Origin: Blastocatellia bacterium
Lineage (GTDB): Bacteria; Acidobacteriota; Blastocatellia; UBA7656
Assembly (NCBI GenBank): GCA_045807725.1
Contig: JBJMGV010000126.1
Location: 28,802 to 92,801, forward strand
DNA length: 64,000 nucleotides
Reading direction: 5' to 3'
Part shown: one piece after another, positions 19,310 through 63,990 of the stretch
Numbering within the stretch: position 1 is the stretch's first letter
Layout: every line of letters begins with the position of its first letter
Translations under genes and position numbers: made by a program
The notes under the pieces: generated by a model
What the model saw: the letters and a program-made list of their open reading frames with translations, nothing else
What the model was told of the DNA's origin: nothing
The model's database searches: none

Positions 19310-19437
19310 AATCGCTTCTCGCCATTAAGAATTATGCAGCCATTCACGCCGCTAAGGATTATGCAACCGTTCGCGCCGCTAAGAACTATGCAGCCGTTCG
19401 CGCCGCTAAGGATTATGCAGCCGTTCACGCCGCGTAG
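19310..19437. repeat. 30-bp tandem repeat x4
   Basis: attatgcagccattcacgccgctaagg(a/a)... repeated four times with few substitutions. Confidence 0.75.
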
Positions 19438-19544
19438 CGGCGGGTGAGTTTAGCCAGGCGTTTCAACGCCTGGAAGTCAACGGCGCGGTGATCGCGTCGC
19501 GTCAGCGACGCCTGAATGCCCGCCGATTCAAGCGTCGCTGACGC

Positions 19545-36782: not shown

Positions 36783-36998
36783 CAGAGCGTATCTGAGAAG
36801 CCCTGAAGGGGCGCGATTCAATAGCCCAGCCCAACGGGCTGGGTACACCCAGCGACCATTCGGCAAGCCCTGAAAGGGCGTAATAGGTGATCGGTTATTG
36901 CGCCCTTTCAGGGCTTGGCGGTTAGCCCCGCCGCTCACCCAGGGCGCTGCCCTGGGCTGTCGAATCCCGCCCCTTCAGGGCTTCTCAGATACGCTCTA
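36783..36998. repeat. ~220-bp MITE-like palindromic element, copy A
   Basis: Terminal inverted repeats agagcgtatctgagaagccctgaaggggcg ... cgccccttcagggcttctcagatacgctctatag; internal aagccctgaaagggcg hairpins; about 90% identical to the inverted copy at 53003-53222. Confidence 0.65.
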
Positions 36999-52917: not shown

Positions 52918-53284
<367 letters not shown>

Positions 53285-56973: not shown

Positions 56974-57384
56974 TTAGTTTTTGAAGAGCTTATCGAAAGC
57001 CGAGCGCGGATCTTTCATCGCCGAGGTCGCTGTCGTCGTTTCGCGCTCGATGGTCTTGCGCGGCTCGAACACAGCACAAACATTGCGCTCGTCTTTTTTG
57101 ACGACGCGTTCGGTGATCGGCTTGCGACACTGAAAGCGCGCGCCGGGATCAAAGCTCACGCAGTTCTTACAGGTGCGCAGATCGGTGTTGCATTTCGGGC
57201 ATTGCTGATCGAGGGCGATGCCGCCGACCTCGATGTTGATCATCTGGCCGCAGAGGTTGCAGCGCGTCACTTCGCGGAAGGCCGGCATCTTTGGCGCGCG
57301 TATGTCACTTTTTTGCGGAGCCGGGCGCGACCTCTGCTCCTGGCCATCATCTTGATAGCCACGCTGTTTATACTTTCTGTCCAT
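56974..57384 (-). CDS. Hypothetical basic protein with double Zn-ribbon (CxxC x4)
   Basis: ...CNLCGQ...CPKCNTDLRTCKNC...; ATG at 57384 with an AGGAGA RBS. Confidence 0.5.
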   Translation of the reverse strand: MDRKYKQRGYQDDGQEQRSRPAPQKSDIRAPKMPAFREVTRCNLCGQMINIEVGGIALDQQCPKCNTDLRTCKNCVSFDPGARFQCRKPITERVVKKDERNVCAVFEPRKTIERETTTATSAMKDPRSAFDKLFKN

Positions 57385-57802
57385 AGAAATCTCCTGTTTG
57401 ATTACAACAGACCTTGATTTTCCTGAGTCTGTGATGAGTCGGTCAGTTGGTAAAGCAAGTCGTCTGCCGCAGTCCGAGAGGCTCTCGGCTATTGTCACTG
57501 AGTGAACCTGATTTGTTCGGGAGTTCCAAGATCGAATCAATGTGACATTATCGTTATACATCATCGGCACGCGGTAAGCAACGGAAATCGGCTAAAGCGA
57601 TGCCCTCAATCGTGATTTCGCTTTACTCTAATGCAGCGCGGCGCGTCGGTAAAATAGGCTGCACAGCGGAAGCCATACGGTCGCTTGTCATACCTGTTGG
57701 CGTAGGCGTCCACATTATCGCCTCATCGGATTGATTAAACGTCACGTCTTGACTAAGGTTCAGTTAGGTTGCGCCGGCGCGGCGGCTTGTTGAACTTGCC
57801 GC

Positions 57803-57831
57803 TTGACATCGCCGGCGAGGTTACGCATAAT
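57803..57831 (+). promoter_or_regulatory. Sigma-70-like promoter (TTGACA-17-CATAAT) for the phe leader
   Basis: cttgacatcgccggcgaggttacgcataatg. Confidence 0.5.
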
Positions 57832-57865
57832 GCCGGCCTGGCTGTCACCGCAGCTTCATCACGCA

Positions 57866-57994
57866 ATGAGTTCACGCAACACACAAATGGTAATCAACTG
57901 GCGCAGCCGCACGGCGGGCGCTGACTTCGCGTTTCGCTTTAGCTTTTATTTTAGCTTTAGCGCCGCACACCGAGCGGGGAGCGCGATGACCTGA
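57866..57994 (+). CDS. Phe-rich leader peptide (pheL-like), ~35-42 aa depending on start
   Basis: ...MVINWRSRTAGADFAFRFSFYFSFSAAHRAGSAMT: six Phe codons in the 12-codon window FAFRFSFYFSFS. Confidence 0.5.
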   Translation: MSSRNTQMVINWRSRTAGADFAFRFSFYFSFSAAHRAGSAMT

Positions 57995-58022
57995 AGCCGC
58001 AGAGCACATCGCTAAGGTTCAC

Positions 58023-58056
58023 GAAGCCCGCTCCCTCGTCGGAAGGAGCGGGCTTC
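58023..58056 (+). terminator. Attenuator terminator hairpin between the leader peptide and pheA
   Basis: gaagcccgctcc-ctcgtcgga-aggagcgggcttc followed by gtgtttc; the leader segment gagcgggga can pair alternatively with cccgctc. Confidence 0.5.
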
Positions 58057-58099
58057 AAGTGTTTCAGGGACGAGTTCAATCGCAAAAGAGAGTTGACCG

Positions 58100-58978
58100 A
58101 TGAATACGGCAAGCCACCCAATCCGAGCCGCCTTTCAGGGCGAGCGCGGCGCGTTCAGCGAAGACGCGGCGCGGCAACTGCTCGGCAACGCAGTCGAGAC
58201 GGTTGCCTATCGCAGCTTCGACGATATGTTCGACGCCGTGTCGAGCGGTGCTGCCGATGCGGCGGTTGCGCCGATTGAAAACAGCCTCGCCGGCTCGGTC
58301 ATTAAAAACTACGACCTGCTCGAAGAGCGCGACTTGACGATCATCGGCGAAACCAGCGTGCGCATCATTCACAACCTCATCGCGCCGCGCGGCGTCGGCC
58401 TTGATGACGTGCGCCACGTCTATTCGCACCCGGTCGCGCTGGCGCAGTGCGAGAAGTTCTTGCGCGCGCGCCCGCAATTTGCCGTCGAAGTCGCTTACGA
58501 CACCGCCGGCAGCGTCAAGATGGTCGTTGACAATAACCGCCGAGACGAAGCGGCGATTGCCGGCGCGACCGCCGCCGAAGTTTATGGCGCGCAAATCATC
58601 GCCGCCGGCATCGAAGACAACGCCGAAAACTACACCCGCTTTCTGCTGCTCGCGCGGCCAGAACGCGCGGCAGCGATTCCTTTGCTCTACCGCGACGGCG
58701 AGCGCAAAACGACGGTCGTCTTTCGCGTCGCCAACCGGCCCGGTTCGTTGTTTCGCGCGCTGGCGGTCTTCGCCCTGCGCGACATTGATCTAACCAAGAT
58801 TGAATCGCGGCCCATCGCAGGCCGCCCGTGGGAGTATTCATTCTATCTCGACCTGATCGGCGACCAGCACGAGCCGCGCATCGAGCGCGCGCTCGCGCAC
58901 CTCGGCGAGATGATCGAGAGCATACGCGTGCTCGGCAGCTATCCAAGACACAGTCACGAGGGAGGGATTGAACAATGA
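58100..58978 (+). CDS. pheA: Prephenate dehydratase (with C-terminal ACT domain)
   Basis: ...[12 protein letters not shown]...TRF...ESRP... PDT signature. Confidence 0.9.
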
Positions 58979-59994
58979 TTATCGCAATGCGCTCGGACGC
59001 GACCGAAGAGCAGATCGAATTCGTCTGCGAGAGCATACGTAACTATGGCTACAAACCGCACGTGATTCGCGGCGAAGAGCGCGTCGTCATCGGCGCGATT
59101 GGTCAAGGCGATAAGAAAGACCACCTGCAAGCGCTGCGCTCCGTCGATGGCGTCGAAAACGTCGTGCCCATCCTGCAACCGTATAAGGTCGTGGGCCGCG
59201 AACTGAAACAGGCGAAGACCATCGTGCGCGTCGGCGACCTGGAGATCGGCGGCTCAGGCTTGGTCGTGATGGCCGGGCCGTGTTCGGTCGAGACGCGCGA
59301 GCAGTTGATGGAAACGGCTGAAGGCGTCAAGGCCGCCGGCGCGCAGGTCTTGCGCGGCGGCGCGTACAAGCCGCGCACCTCGCCTTATGATTTTCAGGGG
59401 CTTGAAGTCGAGGGCCTCAAGCTGCTGGCCGAAGCCCGCGAGCACACCGGCCTGAAGATCATCACCGAAGTCGTCACCACTGAAGACACGGAACTGGTCG
59501 CCGAGTACGCCGACATCCTGCAAGTCGGCGCGCGCAACATGCAGAACTTCGCGCTGCTCAAGCGGCTCGGTCGCGTCAATAAGCCTGTGCTGCTGAAACG
59601 TGGTATGAGTTCGACGATTAAAGAACTGCTGCTGTCTGCCGAATACATCGCCACGCACGGCAACGATCAGGTGATGCTGTGCGAGCGCGGCATACGCACC
59701 TTCGAGACGGCGACGCGCAACACGCTCGATCTCGCCGCCGTGCCGTTGCTCAATGAGCTGAGCCACCTGCCCGTCGTCGTTGATCCGTCGCACGCCACCG
59801 GCAAGCGCAGCCTGGTGCGCCCGGCGGCGAAGGCAGCGATAGCGATTGGCGCGGACGGCCTCATCATCGAAGTCCACCCGCGCCCGCACGAAGCCTGGTC
59901 GGACGGGCCGCAGTCGGTGACGCCGCAGATGTTCGCCGAGATTATGGAGGACGTGCGCCGCTACGCCGCGATGGAATCGCGCCACGTCAATTGA
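58975..59994 (+). CDS. 3-deoxy-7-phosphoheptulonate (DAHP) synthase, type I-beta with N-terminal regulatory domain
   Basis: KDO8PS/AroA-Ibeta fold (...[11 protein letters not shown]...GARNMQN...VVDPSH...); start overlaps the pheA stop (ATGA). Confidence 0.9.
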
Positions 59995-60772: not shown

Positions 60773-60969
60773 TCGCGGGCCCAGCTTTCTTATCCTTCGC
60801 GGTAAGTTGCGCCACTCGAATAATTTTGAACCCCGGCTCAGGTTTTACCGTAAAATTCTGCACGGATGCTCAGAATTTTCTTGACACCGGCGACGCGCGA
60901 AATTAGCATTGTAGCGCTCGGAATCTCGGCTCAATAGTGGTCGCAGCGCCCTCCGAAGGAGACAACGTG

Positions 60970-62403
60970 ATGAACTTAAGAAGGCTGACCCTCCCCTTTC
61001 TGCTCACGGCATTGGCATCGCTCGGCATTGCCTTCGTGACTTCAACCAGCGCCAGTTCGGGCAAAGAAGTCACCTTCAATAAAGACGTCGCGCCGATCTT
61101 CTATAAGAACTGCGCGGAATGTCACAAGCCCAACGACATCGCGCCAATGTCGCTGATCTCTTACAAAGAAGTCCGCCCGTGGGCGCGCTCGATCAAAGAG
61201 AAAGTCATCACCCGCGAGATGCCGCCATGGAGTCCCGATCCGAAATACGGCCAGTTCAGCAACGACCACCGCCTGAGCGATAAAGACGTTCAGACCATCG
61301 TTGCCTGGGTGGACGGCGGCGCGAAAGAAGGCGACGCGAAAGACCTGCCGCCCGCGCCCGAATTCACCAGCGGCGGCTGGGAACTCGGAAAGCCCGATCA
61401 GATATTCTCGATGAAAGAAGAGTTCATCGTGCAGCCGGGCCAGCCCGACACGATTCAGAACTTCATCATCCCGACCAACTTCAAAGAAGATAAGTGGATT
61501 CAGTCGGCTGAGATTCTGCCGGGCAACAAGAGGATCGTTCATCACGTCATCGCCTTCATCCAGACGCCTGAGATGATTGCGAAGCTGCGCTCTGCCGAGG
61601 GCCAGCGCCGCATCGGCGAGATGACGAAAGTCTTCTACCGCGACGGCACGCTGATTAAAGCTAAGGCCGACGCGCCGATCATTGATAATGGATGCAGCGA
61701 TGCGAGCGGCGGCTCGGCTTTCCCGCGCCCGAAGGCAGCCGAAGGCGGCGATGCCTTTGGCCTCTTGCTCGCGGGTTACGCGCCGGGCAAAGGGCTTGAT
61801 GTGTGGCCGGCGGGCACGGCTAAGAAAGTCGCCGCCGGTTCGATGATTGTCTTCCAGATTCACTACTCGGCGTTTCGCGGCAAGTTCGTGCAGGCGGAAA
61901 AAGACATGACCAGCATCGGCCTGCACTTTACATCGCAGCCGCCGCAGCACTCGCTCAACACCATCGGCATACAGAATCACTACTTCAAGATTCCCGCCGG
62001 TGTGACCGACCACGAAGTGACGGCCTGCTACACCTTCGACAGCGACGTGAAGCTGATGAGCTATATGCCGCACATGCACCTGCGCGGCAAGGATATGAAG
62101 TACGATGTGATCTATCCCGATGGCCGCAAAGAGACGCTGCTGTGGGTTCCGAAGTTCAGCTTCAACTGGCAGACGATGTATTACCTGAAGAAGCCTGTGT
62201 CGATACCCAAAGGCACCAAGATGATCATCACCGCGCACTACGACAACTCGGCGAAGAACAAGTACAACCCCGACGCGACGAAGGACATTCGCTGGGGTGA
62301 TCCGACATATGAAGAGATGATGATCGGCTGGATGGATTATTACGTAGACGCGCCGGCGACGCCCGACAAGGCCGCCGCGTCGGCGCGCACGGCGCGCAAG
62401 TAG
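60970..62403 (+). CDS. Secreted mono-heme cytochrome c (PSCyt-like) fused to a copper type II monooxygenase-like (PHM/DBH-like) domain, paralog 1
   Basis: VAPIFYKNCAECHKPNDIAPMSL heme site; HH(191-192), H in QIHYS, MPHMHLRGKDM, EEMMIGWMD spaced like the CuH/CuM ligands. Confidence 0.65.
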   Translation: MNLRRLTLPFLLTALASLGIAFVTSTSASSGKEVTFNKDVAPIFYKNCAECHKPNDIAPMSLISYKEVRPWARSIKEKVITREMPPWSPDPKYGQFSNDHRLSDKDVQTIVAWVDGGAKEGDAKDLPPAPEFTSGGWELGKPDQIFSMKEEFIVQPGQPDTIQNFIIPTNFKEDKWIQSAEILPGNKRIVHHVIAFIQTPEMIAKLRSAEGQRRIGEMTKVFYRDGTLIKAKADAPIIDNGCSDASGGSAFPRPKAAEGGDAFGLLLAGYAPGKGLDVWPAGTAKKVAAGSMIVFQIHYSAFRGKFVQAEKDMTSIGLHFTSQPPQHSLNTIGIQNHYFKIPAGVTDHEVTACYTFDSDVKLMSYMPHMHLRGKDMKYDVIYPDGRKETLLWVPKFSFNWQTMYYLKKPVSIPKGTKMIITAHYDNSAKNKYNPDATKDIRWGDPTYEEMMIGWMDYYVDAPATPDKAAASARTARK

Positions 62404-62547
62404 CCACCGTAGTCTTTCGTTCGGGGCGGCCCGCAGCGTCGCCCCGAATTCCGTTTCAGTTTTAAGTTCAACAGTGGATTCGCCATTCGGGGCAATGCCG
62501 CAGCGCCGCCCCGCCAAGAGGCCGCCAGTCACCAAGCGGAGGAGTCA

Positions 62548-63990
62548 ATGAAGAAAGCTATCACCATCGTGTTCGCCGCCGCGTTCGTCGCCGCGCTCTG
62601 TTTCGCCTTTTCGCCGGCGACCAGCGCCGCCGGCCCGAGCAAACGCGAAGTCACCTTCTCGAAAGACATCGCGCCGATCTTTTTCAAGAACTGCGCCGAG
62701 TGTCACAAACCCAACGACATTGCGCCGATGTCTCTGCTCACGTTCAAAGAGGCGCGTCCGTGGGCGCGCTCGATCAAAGAAAAGGTCGCCACCCGCGAGA
62801 TGCCGCCCTGGAGTCCTGACCCGCACTACGGCCAGTTCACCAACGAGAAGCGGCTGACGGACAAAGAAGTCGAGACTATCGTTGCCTGGGTCGATGGCGG
62901 CGCGAAGGAAGGCAATCCGAAAGACCTGCCGCCGACGCCTGAGTTCGCCAAAGGCGGCTGGACGATTGGCAAACCCGACGCCGTCTTCGAGATGGGCGAA
63001 GAGTGGACGATTAATCCGAACGCGCCCGACAACTACATCAACTTCTTCATGCCGACGAACTTTAAAGAAGATCGTTGGGTGCAGGCGGCTGAGATACTGC
63101 CCGGCAATCGCAAGGTCGTGCATCACGTCATCGCCTTCATCCAGTCGCCGCAGATGATGGCCAAGCGCGCCGAAGCCGCGAAGAACGGCGGCAAGGTCGG
63201 CGGGCGCACGGCGGACGGCAAGCTGTTTTATCTCGACGGCACGCTGCGCCGCGTCAAGATGGACGCGCCGGTGACGGACGACGCATGCAGCCAGCAGCAG
63301 CCGACCGGCGGGCGTCGCATCGGCGGCGGCGGCGACGAGAACGAAGGCGCGCTGCTTGGCGGTTACGCGCCGGGTCTCGAAGCGGCGGTCTACCCGGCGG
63401 GCGTCGCCAAGCGGCTGCCGGCAGGCTCGACCATCATGTTTCAGGTGCACTATTCGAGCTTCCGTGGCGCGCTCGACAAGCCCGAAAAAGACCGCACGAA
63501 GATCGGCCTGATCTTCGCCAAAGAGCCGCCCGATAAGATGGCCGTGACGTTTGCGGCGGCCAACGTGATGTTCAAGATTCCGGCGGGCTCAGAGAGTCAC
63601 GAAGTCACCGCTTGCCAGACTGTGCCGGCAGACGTTCAAGTGCTCAACTACATGCCGCATATGCATCTGCGCGGCAAGGATATGAAGTACGAAATCATTT
63701 ATCCCGACGGCAAGCGCGAGACAGTGCTGTGGGTTCCGAAGTTCAACTTCAACTGGCAGGCTGCCTACGTGCTGAAGGAGCCATTGAAGGTGCCGAAGGG
63801 GTCGAAGCTGATCGTCACCGCCCACTACGACAACTCGAAGAAGAACAAGTACAACCCCGACCCGGCGAAAGATGTGCGTTGGGGCGATCCGACCTATGAC
63901 GAGATGATGATTGGCTGGCTCGACATCATGGTCGATAACCCGATGAAGAAGCCGAAAGCCGATCCGGCAGCGGGCGGCGGCCAGAAGTAA
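62548..63990 (+). CDS. Cytochrome c / copper-monooxygenase-like fusion protein, paralog 2
   Basis: ~60% identical to paralog 1; the same CAECH, HHVIAF, QVHYS, MPHMHLRGKDM and DEMMIGWLD motifs. Confidence 0.65.
   Translation: MKKAITIVFAAAFVAALCFAFSPATSAAGPSKREVTFSKDIAPIFFKNCAECHKPNDIAPMSLLTFKEARPWARSIKEKVATREMPPWSPDPHYGQFTNEKRLTDKEVETIVAWVDGGAKEGNPKDLPPTPEFAKGGWTIGKPDAVFEMGEEWTINPNAPDNYINFFMPTNFKEDRWVQAAEILPGNRKVVHHVIAFIQSPQMMAKRAEAAKNGGKVGGRTADGKLFYLDGTLRRVKMDAPVTDDACSQQQPTGGRRIGGGGDENEGALLGGYAPGLEAAVYPAGVAKRLPAGSTIMFQVHYSSFRGALDKPEKDRTKIGLIFAKEPPDKMAVTFAAANVMFKIPAGSESHEVTACQTVPADVQVLNYMPHMHLRGKDMKYEIIYPDGKRETVLWVPKFNFNWQAAYVLKEPLKVPKGSKLIVTAHYDNSKKNKYNPDPAKDVRWGDPTYDEMMIGWLDIMVDNPMKKPKADPAAGGGQK

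Follow-up and report, generated by a model that had tools for sequence, protein, structure and literature searches.

The closest described counterparts of the locus reported here are the pheL-pheA system of Escherichia coli (Rfam Phe_leader) and gammaproteobacterial pheL, in which a short ORF with Phe codons and alternative terminator and antiterminator structures lie 5' of pheA, and in which starvation leads to ribosome stalling and stalling to read-through (PMC3082878, PMC11802643). Gurvich et al. found pheL in Gammaproteobacteria only, although Bacteroides and Desulfobacterium offered possible further cases (PMC3082878). In Corynebacterium glutamicum, the aroR leader, with Phe and Tyr codons, responds to Phe limitation by ribosome-mediated attenuation of DAHP synthase (the aroF operon), as Neshat et al. 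2014 are summarised in PMC11802643. Predicted leader-peptide attenuators of Actinobacteria and the Bacillus His leader are further, independent instances of the classical mechanism outside Proteobacteria that were recognised by comparative genomics (PMC1262725, PMC2965389). A preliminary description of the DNA studied here held that such attenuation is rarely documented outside Proteobacteria and Firmicutes. This needs tempering, since leader-peptide attenuators are experimentally known in Actinobacteria, including the Phe-Tyr-Phe aroR leader of the C. glutamicum DAHP synthase operon according to the same summary (PMC11802643, citing Neshat 2014), and are predicted in Bacteroides (PMC3082878).

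In a 64 kb stretch of DNA from a Blastocatellia bacterium (64,000 nucleotides, hereafter the window), we found upstream of pheA a module that is very probably a ribosome-mediated leader-peptide transcription attenuator, tying the pheA-DAHP synthase operon to charged tRNA-Phe and, in many members of the family, also to charged tRNA-Tyr. The preliminary description had likewise read the locus as an attenuator of the E. coli pheL/pheA kind, and this reading is supported by the conserved parts, the conserved frame and the covarying helices in relatives. There is, however, no sequence or structure homology to E. coli pheL (no Rfam leader match at E up to 10). The leader here has 42 aa as compared to 15 in pheL, Phe is found at every second codon with Tyr mixed in where pheL has runs of three, the 5' strand of the antiterminator lies within the ORF upstream of the stop codon, there is no conserved 1:2 protector hairpin, and the phylum is Acidobacteriota. 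The aroR leader differs in its phylum (Actinobacteria) and in its much shorter motif (Phe-Tyr-Phe), and in the published summary pheA lies outside its operon; we would not expect the two leaders to be related in sequence. The Actinobacteria attenuators and the Bacillus His leader serve other amino acids and operons and share no sequence similarity with the leader described here.

The pheA gene (58100-58978, + strand) encodes a prephenate dehydratase (PF00800, 1.4e-59) with a C-terminal ACT domain (PF01842, 7.4e-10; Pfam). Unlike E. coli pheA, it has no chorismate mutase domain, and its operon adds a gene for a type I-beta DAHP synthase (58975-59994, + strand; PF00793, 5.4e-81) with an N-terminal ferredoxin-like regulatory domain (PF18152, 7.1e-21), whose ATG overlaps the pheA stop codon (ATGA). 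The operon thus joins a Phe branch enzyme to the enzyme for the common aromatic precursor. Its composition is as first described, and in relatives the DAHP synthase gene lies directly 3' of pheA wherever the contig of a leader locus extends far enough. The gap before pheA, previously put at about 700 bp, is an untranslated gap of about 530 to 715 bp, depending on the start chosen for the divergent upstream gene, and conservation with the nearest relatives (L001 and L002) extends up to 57596. The TTGACA-17-CATAAT promoter was found where it had been described and is the sole promoter-like site in 57000-58600; the same scan gave no promoter-like site between the terminator hairpin and pheA. A GCC discriminator follows CATAAT, and the transcript is predicted to start near 57838. 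All 43 relatives for which enough sequence is available on the 5' side have TTGAC[ATG]-17/18-[CGA]ATAAT ahead of the leader.

Table 1. Predicted features of the leader region upstream of pheA (positions in the window).
Feature	Position	Strand	Sequence or composition	Basis
Sigma-70-type promoter	TTGACA 57803-57808, 17 nt, CATAAT 57826-57831	+		11/12 consensus matches
Leader ORF, 42 codons plus TGA (57992-57994)	57866-57994	+	MSSRNTQMVINWRSRTAGADFAFRFSFYFSFSAAHRAGSAMT	
Putative regulatory codon run, codons 21-32	57926-57961	+	FAFRFSFYFSFS (F-A-F-R-F-S-F-Y-F-S-F-S), read as TTC GCG TTT CGC TTT AGC TTT TAT TTT AGC TTT AGC	5 TTT, 1 TTC, 1 TAT
Antiterminator 5' strand, inside leader ORF	57972-57988	+		fold, RNAalifold, co-variation
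Antiterminator inner-helix 5' strands	57979-57982; 57983-57988	+	GAGC; GCGAUG	
Antiterminator inner-helix 3' strands	58007-58012; 58017-58020	+	CAUCGC; GUUC	
Terminator left arm	58023-58034	+	GAAGCCCGCTCC	folding, covariation
Terminator loop	58035-58044	+		folding, covariation
Terminator right arm	58045-58056	+	GGAGCGGGCTTC	folding, covariation
Terminator tail	58057-58069	+	AAGUGUUUCAGGG	folding, covariation

The module is present in 51 of 80 related pheA loci; a 52nd locus, cut by a contig end (L064), is a weak partial match only. From 5' to 3' it consists of a promoter, an ATG, an F-x-F(/Y) run, a G-rich segment, a stop codon and a terminator with a T-tract, followed by pheA and the DAHP synthase gene. 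All carriers are of Acidobacteriota type, from Blastocatellia as well as Terriglobia and Thermoanaerobaculia, and none of the Myxococcota or Chloroflexota loci from the same search has the module. The comparisons below use a set of 44 sequences, made up of the window and 43 of the 80 pheA loci, which were found by a codon scan. A covariance model, constructed with the held-out loci set aside, recovered L012, L016, L019, L055, L068, L041, L066 and L058, and it found only one site in the window and no Myxococcota or Chloroflexota locus. Spacing among the loci is confined to narrow ranges: the last Phe codon ends 10-13 nt before the G-rich segment, 13-17 nt separate this segment from the stop codon, and the terminator follows after a further 23-32 nt. 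The preliminary description had named the absence of the Phe run or the hairpin from relatives as evidence against an attenuator; both have been kept at about 50 independent pheA loci of Acidobacteriota, and with them the reading frame, the place of the stop codon and the alternative pairing. In a metagenome search with the pattern TTTAGC-N8-12-GGAGCGGGG, none of the loci listed (at least 120) had a pheA gene in its vicinity or a leader that we found convincing. We regard these matches as chance because only 15 bases were specified, and the search as uninformative.

The ATG that comes first downstream of the predicted start of transcription is at 57866 and has a homologous ATG in L001 and L002. 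From these features of the sequence, this is likely the leader start, giving a 42-aa peptide in preference to a 63-aa ORF that begins with TTG. An in-frame ATG at 57830 (MPAWLSPQ...) was rejected as the leader start: it overlaps the –10 box and precedes the site where transcription is predicted to begin, and some relatives share it only because a –10 box followed by G reads ATAATG. The Phe-alternating short ORF of the preliminary description therefore needed a new start at ATG 57866, while its codon run stands as the densest occurrence of Phe in the window. Among about 93,000 stretches in the six frames of the window, six Phe codons in 12 stop-free codons are found at this locus alone. The run ends in the hexamer TTTAGC (57956-57961). 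Another Phe-rich frame in the window is 'FGFLFLFN' at 52983 (– strand), and the frame at 62449 ('FRFSFKFN') was set aside as the T-tract of the terminator after the gene at 60937-62403.

An in-frame ATG giving a peptide of 28-52 aa is present at 43 of the 44 loci. The aligned position of the stop codon is fixed and its identity varies (TGA in 21, TAG in 13, TAA in 10 of the 44 loci). Relatives keep the Phe positions, with Tyr codons mixed among them in many family members, but differ in the residues between these positions and in the N-terminus. The share of TTT among Phe codons is 75% in the leaders, 47% in the pheA genes next to them and 25% in the coding sequences of the window; in the leaders TTT is three times as frequent as TTC, whereas the neighbouring pheA genes are near parity. 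The varied stop codons together with the kept frame and ATG, the Phe positions and the TTT bias point to selection on translation rather than on an RNA motif, and we infer from this pattern that the leader ORF is translated. No Shine-Dalgarno sequence is present at the leader ATG of the window, and most relatives are likewise without one; by a crude count, about half of the large ORFs in the window also lack one. When two of the leader peptides were compared with Pfam and NCBIfam (E up to 10), there was no match.

The terminator is a 12-bp GC hairpin of –29.1 kcal/mol (z = –5.1 against shuffles). It begins 28 nt past the TGA of the leader, close to the 30 nt first estimated, and ends 43 nt before pheA; the ribosome-binding region of pheA (58084-58099) is not sequestered by it. 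Across the 44 sequences, 96% of cells are paired and 7 of the 12 pairs have double changes. The covariation score is 0.506 as compared to 0.205 in shuffles, which reach the observed score in 0 of 500 cases, and it is at most 0.16 when the partners are slid. The U-rich stretch that had been described behind the hairpin is weak in the window, where the tail offers only UGUUU and is not called by a consensus terminator scan. The tail of L001 and L002 is similarly limited to GUUUU, six nt after the stem. In contrast, forty-odd relatives have canonical T-tracts, and in several of these the T-tract abuts the pheA ATG. The short U run in the window, together with the failed scan, suggests that the hairpin may be a poor intrinsic terminator in this genome.

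The preliminary description also proposed that a leader segment pairs with the left arm of the terminator. We found that GAGCGGG (57972-57978) is complementary to CCCGCTC in this arm (58027-58033; CCCGCUC in the RNA, common to both helices), and that the pairing co-varies across three clades. Folding gave the mutually exclusive structures that had been suggested: the terminator at the energy given above and, sharing its left arm, an antiterminator (57969-58037) of –24.2 kcal/mol. The leader stop codon sits in the apical loop of this antiterminator stem-loop. In two clades, RNAalifold on transcripts without the right arm predicts the outer helix between the segment within the ORF and the left arm. 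A GCGAU:AUCGC inner helix is predicted in 15 clade-A sequences, and at the same position clade B has GUUCG:CGAAC or GUUCC:GGAAC. Strand and arm match in each of three clade-specific versions (GGAGCGGG/CCCGCTCC, GAGGGGY/RCCCCTC and GCGGGGT/(R)CCCCGC), and an arm swap between clades costs 2-5 kcal/mol. At 42 of the 44 loci, the nascent RNA is predicted to fold as the antiterminator. Within clades, the antiterminator covaries modestly, with a single compensatory pair and a score that 5 of 500 shuffles reach, and shuffles of the duplex at each locus are weak singly (z about –0.2 to –3.2, mean –1.8) because a G-rich strand readily pairs with a C-rich arm. The case for the antiterminator is therefore made by its conserved position and co-variation and not by single-sequence energies. 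The cross-clade MAFFT alignment (A1) sets the clade A and clade B antiterminator strands two columns out of register, so we assessed the antiterminator on per-clade alignments (A2 and A3) and by arm-swap energies.

A 1:2 protector hairpin is a feature of the E. coli trp/phe type of attenuator, and the general mechanism does not require one. Neither the fold of the window nor RNAalifold on two clades predicts a conserved protector or pause helix, and candidate CCGC:GCGG protector pairs in clade A change on one side without compensation (A3). The naked RNA is thus predicted to read through by default, unlike in E. coli trp/phe.

The sequence and its comparison with relatives establish which parts make up the module, in what order and at what distances, and show that the frame is conserved and that both alternative helices covary. 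How these parts would work depends on Phe and Tyr supply, on the geometry of the ribosome footprint and on timing, which we infer from the arrangement as follows. A strong constitutive promoter would start the transcript near 57838, and the 42-codon leader would be translated as RNA polymerase moves ahead. When Phe is scarce, the ribosome would stall at one of the six Phe codons (57926-57958). A stall at the last of these would place the front edge of the ribosome just short of the G-rich segment 57972-57988, and the 10-13 nt between them in the family fit a stalled ribosome well. The freed segment could then pair with 58007-58033 as it emerges, forming a long antiterminator that uses up the left arm of the terminator, and polymerase would continue into pheA and the DAHP synthase gene. 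When Phe is plentiful, the ribosome would cross the G-rich segment to the stop codon and occupy or melt the 5' strand of the antiterminator while the right arm of the terminator is transcribed; the 12-bp terminator would then form and transcription would end 5' of pheA. A ribosome halted at the stop codon would cover the inner helix but reach no further than the 3' edge of the outer strand; any blocking of the antiterminator from this position would therefore rely on the inner helix, sterics and timing.

We weighed this reading against one in which the alternative hairpins are real and their reader is an RNA-binding protein or small molecule that recognises UUUAGC/UUU repeats, the ORF being incidental. 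TTTAG is invariant in 44 of 44 sequences and the final C of TTTAGC is present in at least 90%; Ser has six codons, so selection at the peptide level does not explain this near-invariance at the nucleotide level. The scarcity of Shine-Dalgarno sequences would also suit such a reader. However, an open frame with an in-frame ATG and a fixed-position stop that uses all three codons is conserved across clades, Phe codons persist next to codons that change, Terriglobia and Thermoanaerobaculia leaders have the Phe codons and lack TTTAGC, and there is no Rfam riboswitch or T-box match at E up to 10. A reader other than the ribosome is on balance very unlikely. We also consider it very improbable that in the genome from which the window comes the switch, its U-tract having decayed, works chiefly by Rho-dependent polarity or by effects on mRNA stability and translation in place of intrinsic termination. 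The hairpin is intact at –29.1 kcal/mol, as are the antiterminator and the spacing, canonical T-tracts are kept in forty-odd relatives, and the hairpin leaves the pheA ribosome-binding region free, even though the terminator scan does not call AAGUGUUUCAGGG and L001 and L002 share the short GUUUU set six nt from the stem.

Another possibility is that the product of the ORF is itself functional, a small hydrophobic peptide whose gene has a terminator of its own, and that pheA is expressed independently or by constitutive read-through, with no amino-acid switch. Such a peptide would leave the antiterminator pairing and its co-variation without purpose, and it would have to accommodate an N-terminal half that is unconserved and a C-terminal 'conservation' that tracks RNA pairing. 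The length of 28-52 aa does exceed that of classical leaders, alternating F-x-F would make an amphipathic beta-strand, and some attenuator leader peptides and RNAs act in trans, as do peTrpL and rnTrpL in Sinorhizobium (PMC7298713, PMC7968998). Yet every instance of the element is linked to pheA-DAHP synthase, pheA has no promoter-like site of its own behind the hairpin, with the T-tract abutting its ATG in several relatives, and the peptides match nothing in Pfam or NCBIfam; we find this explanation very unlikely. Attenuation by a ribosome translating the leader is the most probable reading.

When we compared 57000-58600 with all 4227 families of Rfam 15 (cmscan, E up to 10), we found only four weak unrelated matches, and a scan of the whole window at gathering thresholds returned only tRNA and Acido-Lenti-1, with no leader, T-box or riboswitch. 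A survey by Lopatovskaya and colleagues is said to cover attenuation across bacteria. Aside from that survey (Lopatovskaya et al. 2010, Mol Biol 44:128), we found no report in the literature of a Phe leader in Acidobacteria. We lean slightly towards the view that the module represents an undescribed, phylum-wide Acidobacteriota RNA/uORF family (Blastocatellia, Terriglobia, Thermoanaerobaculia), in which one leader that reads Phe and Tyr governs DAHP synthase and the Phe-branch enzyme through a two-state, default-on switch without a protector and with a nucleotide-invariant UUUAGC. The UUUAGC could, for example, present a UAG in the –1 frame that discards ribosomes that have slipped on the hungry U-rich run.

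Taken together, these data describe a concrete, testable cis-regulatory element, of which nature offers about 50 sequence variants. To our knowledge, gene regulation has hardly been studied in Acidobacteriota, a phylum that ranks among the most abundant in soil. The mechanism is a known one and overturns no concept; what the element would add is an independent origin of the leader-peptide solution. The covariance model can be used to annotate genomes in which the leader is unannotated intergenic sequence or a 'hypothetical' small ORF. For these bacteria, the arrangement of the sequence suggests that DAHP synthase and prephenate dehydratase would stand under one putative Phe/Tyr-sensing leader.

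The short Phe-rich ORF claimed upstream of pheA in the preliminary description is present, and of the ~93,000 12-codon stretches without a stop in the window (all six frames), only those at this locus contain six Phe codons. The first ATG past the predicted transcript start is at 57866 and is common to L001 and L002, the nearest relatives of the window. The best relatives of the window pheA protein are in Blastocatellia MAGs (Acidobacteriota), at no more than 84% identity. When we scanned 700 nt upstream of each of 80 pheA loci from species-representative genomes, we found that a stop-free stretch in which every other codon is Phe lies 130–260 nt upstream of pheA in nearly all Acidobacteriota-type loci (for example FAFAFSFFSFS, FGFGFYFYFYFS and FRFSFFSFS), while the 700 nt upstream of the Myxococcota and Chloroflexota pheA loci from the same search held no such stretch. 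The Phe run and the hairpin described below are thus conserved in relatives, as the preliminary description had proposed to check.

We aligned the window with 43 of the 80 loci, picked by codon scan, and found an in-frame ATG giving a peptide of 28–52 aa in 43 of the 44 (the last is truncated at a contig end). Phe stays in place along the run, with variation in the residues that separate it (A, R, S, G, Y) and throughout the N-terminal half. The leader stop occupies one aligned position, yet 21 loci use TGA there, 13 TAG and 10 TAA. Phe codons in the leaders are 75% TTT (179:61); the share is 47% in the neighbouring pheA genes and 25% in the genes of the window, a difference that codon-level selection would account for. 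Tyr codons are also common in the regulatory run, as in FYFYFS or the SYYYFSFS of locus L019. The window leader has no Shine-Dalgarno sequence, nor, by a crude count, do about half of the large ORFs in the window. Locus L018 (2700–3000) has a leader enlarged by tandem repeats (FFRFS x4) and, past its terminator, tandem copies of GCAGTTTTTGGAGAG; these repeats suggest that the Phe run and T-tract grow by slippage or duplication. Locus L068 (2843–2984) is a degenerate member of the family whose run has shrunk to SFSFSW (two Phe, one Trp), with promoter, G-rich segment and terminator all intact.

Domains and gene overlap bear out the pheA-DAHP synthase operon, and DAHP synthase directly follows pheA in every leader locus with a long enough contig. 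The promoter had also been correctly recognized: it is the sole promoter-like site within 57000–58600, and TTGAC[A/T/G]-17/18-[C/G/A]ATAAT followed by GCC lies 5' of the leader in each of the 43 relatives whose sequence reaches far enough; therefore the leader has its own conserved promoter. Directly 3' of this promoter, in the first ~30 nt past the –10 box, clade B loci (L042–L079, for example L048 and L076) carry a conserved inverted repeat, GTCATAAA-N5-TTTATCAA, which might serve as the operator of a DNA-binding regulator or fold as a hairpin at the RNA 5' end; the window, which belongs to clade A, lacks the repeat and has GCCNGCCAAGCT there. On the other side, ~200 nt (57597–57800) separate the promoter from a conserved upstream block ending at 57596. 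This stretch has no Rfam match and is missing from L001, in which 15 nt separate the two blocks; at that position L002 shows a gap of similar size (~240 nt).

Features of the probable attenuator, its operon and other RNA motifs in the window
Feature	Position	Strand	Details
Promoter TTGACA-17-CATAAT	57803-57831	+	11/12 consensus positions
Leader ORF codon run FAFRFSFYFSFS	57926-57961	+	frame ends TGA 57992-57994
Antiterminator helix, window	57972-57978 : 58027-58033		GAGCGGG : CCCGCUC
Antiterminator helix, window	57979-57982 : 58017-58020		GAGC : GUUC
Antiterminator helix, window	57983-57988 : 58007-58012		GCGAUG : CAUCGC
Terminator hairpin	58023-58034, 58045-58056	+	left arm GAAGCCCGCTCC, right arm GGAGCGGGCTTC; -29.1 kcal/mol
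pheA	start 58100	+	43 nt past hairpin; PDT + ACT domains
Type I-beta DAHP synthase	58975-59994	+	ferredoxin-like regulatory domain; overlaps pheA stop
Antiterminator version 1			intra-ORF GGAGCGGG; terminator left arm CCCGCTCC
Antiterminator version 2			intra-ORF GAGGGGY; terminator left arm RCCCCTC
Antiterminator version 3			intra-ORF GCGGGGT; terminator left arm (R)CCCCGC
Acido-Lenti-1 RNA motif	19428-19473	-	above Rfam gathering threshold
Acido-Lenti-1 RNA motif	36799-36843	-	above Rfam gathering threshold
Acido-Lenti-1 RNA motif	36938-36982	+	above Rfam gathering threshold
Acido-Lenti-1 RNA motif	53164-53208	+	above Rfam gathering threshold

The GC-rich hairpin, placed by the preliminary description ~30 nt past the leader stop, begins 28 nt past it (z = –5.1 vs dinucleotide shuffles). 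Of the U-rich stretch claimed behind it, the sequence is there (AAGUGUUUCAGGG), but it is too U-poor for the terminator scan to call. Between its small ORF and pheA, every leader locus has a GC-rich hairpin of 12–17 bp (–20 to –35 kcal/mol); almost all relatives have a T-tract 3' of it, for example CAAAGTTTTTGG or CTTTTGATTTT. In the cross-clade alignment of the 44 sequences, terminator cells are 96% paired and 7 of 12 pairs have changes on both sides; covariation is 0.506, as compared to 0.205 when shuffled (0 of 500 reach 0.506) and at most 0.16 with partners slid. In six loci (L045, L052, L061, L062, L074, L076), only 5–11 nt lie between the hairpin end and the pheA ATG, and because the T-tract abuts the pheA start a ribosome-binding site of its own does not fit in between. 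In these relatives, the G-rich right arm might also act as a sequestered Shine-Dalgarno, so that control would extend to translation; the window's 43-nt spacer makes this idea inapplicable there.

A G-rich segment complementary to the terminator left arm starts 10–13 nt past the last Phe codon and ends 13–17 nt before the leader stop. It exists in three clade-specific versions, each fitting its own clade's arm: when arms were swapped, own-clade pairing was best (–16.1, –15.4 and –15.8 kcal/mol vs –11 to –14 for foreign arms). For transcripts ending before the right arm, RNAalifold gave the antiterminator helix in both large clades, with an additional inner helix, GCGAU:AUCGC, in clade A. Clades B and C have ~97% pairing over the seven core pairs, and four of their sequences carry one compensatory change, AU to CG. 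We also folded nascent RNA from 13 nt past the start of the last Phe codon to the left-arm end, and the left arm pairs with the intra-ORF segment in the minimum-energy fold of 42 of 44 loci, the two exceptions stemming from the definition used for the last Phe codon. In the window, 57969–58037 folds at –24.2 kcal/mol into three stacked helices with the leader stop codon in the apical loop. The proposed pairing of a gagcgggga-type segment with the left arm is thus upheld by window fold, RNAalifold and arm swap, and both of the mutually exclusive structures, this fold and the 58023–58056 hairpin, are predicted.

A covariance model built from the 44 sequences strongly recovered L012, L016, L019, L055 and L068, and found two Thermoanaerobaculia loci (L041, L066) and one Terriglobia locus (L058) at lower score; the contig-cut L064 gave a weak partial match (E = 0.15). 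It matched one site only in the window and none in any Myxococcota or Chloroflexota locus. The attenuator is conserved across several Acidobacteriota classes. In L012 (~2400–2980), L016 (~2340–2998) and L019 (~1680–2287), the Phe run is further upstream of pheA, behind a DJ-1/PfpI-like gene that, being inserted between attenuator and pheA, has become part of the putatively Phe-attenuated operon.

The last Phe codon and a Ser AGC form TTTAGC (window 57956–57961; alignment columns 43–48), which contains a UAG in the –1 frame. All 44 Blastocatellia-type leaders have TTTAG, and at least 90% of them also have the closing C, with variable flanks; Terriglobia and Thermoanaerobaculia versions lack the hexamer. 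Serine has six codons, and the nucleotide invariance is unaccounted for by the peptide or the two helices.

Elsewhere in the window, the four Acido-Lenti-1 copies score 39–41 bits, two of them convergent and about 95 nt apart. Two tandem paralogous genes (60937–62403 and 62548–63990; ~480 aa), both with an N-terminal CAECH heme-binding motif, are separated at ~62425–62475 by a terminator-like hairpin, GGGGCG...CGCCCC, with a T-tract; the Phe-rich frame there is a spurious product of that T-tract.

The anatomy fits the classical attenuation model. Whichever Phe codon occupied its A site, a stalled ribosome would have the G-rich segment just beyond its front edge, so that the antiterminator would form as the left arm emerges and the polymerase would continue. 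A ribosome reaching the stop would melt or occupy the antiterminator 5' strand during right-arm synthesis, and the terminator would form. We infer translation, footprint geometry, timing and the response to Phe and Tyr; the parts with the distances between them, and the covariation, are seen in the sequences and agree with ribosome-mediated attenuation, and this mechanism, put forward in the preliminary description, is the best-supported explanation and very probably correct. The likeness it drew to E. coli pheL/pheA holds for the working, but not for the sequence family. Unlike E. coli trp and phe, the Acidobacteriota leader has no conserved protector (1:2) hairpin that we could find, and therefore read-through is predicted for untranslated RNA; the outer antiterminator strand would also lie at the terminating ribosome's trailing edge, not under the ribosome.

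The leader region had no leader, T-box or riboswitch match in Rfam (all families, E up to 10), and the two leader peptides scanned matched nothing in Pfam or NCBIfam. pheL is catalogued in Gammaproteobacteria only, with possible cases in Bacteroides and Desulfobacterium (Gurvich et al., PMC3082878), and leader peptides were known in Proteobacteria and Actinobacteria only before a report in Firmicutes (PMC2965389). Leader-peptide control of DAHP synthase has a precedent in C. glutamicum aroR-aroF, which has a Phe-Tyr-Phe motif and is Phe-responsive (PMC11802643). In the literature searched, outside the survey of Lopatovskaya et al. (2010), we found no report of a Phe leader in Acidobacteria. 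Thus, the element is apparently an undescribed addition to a known class, the ribosome-mediated attenuators. The mechanism itself is textbook. What gives the finding its value is the phylum in which it occurs, a large and clear-cut family, pheA and DAHP synthase under one common control, codon runs that mix Phe with Tyr, and an invariant, unexplained UUUAGC.
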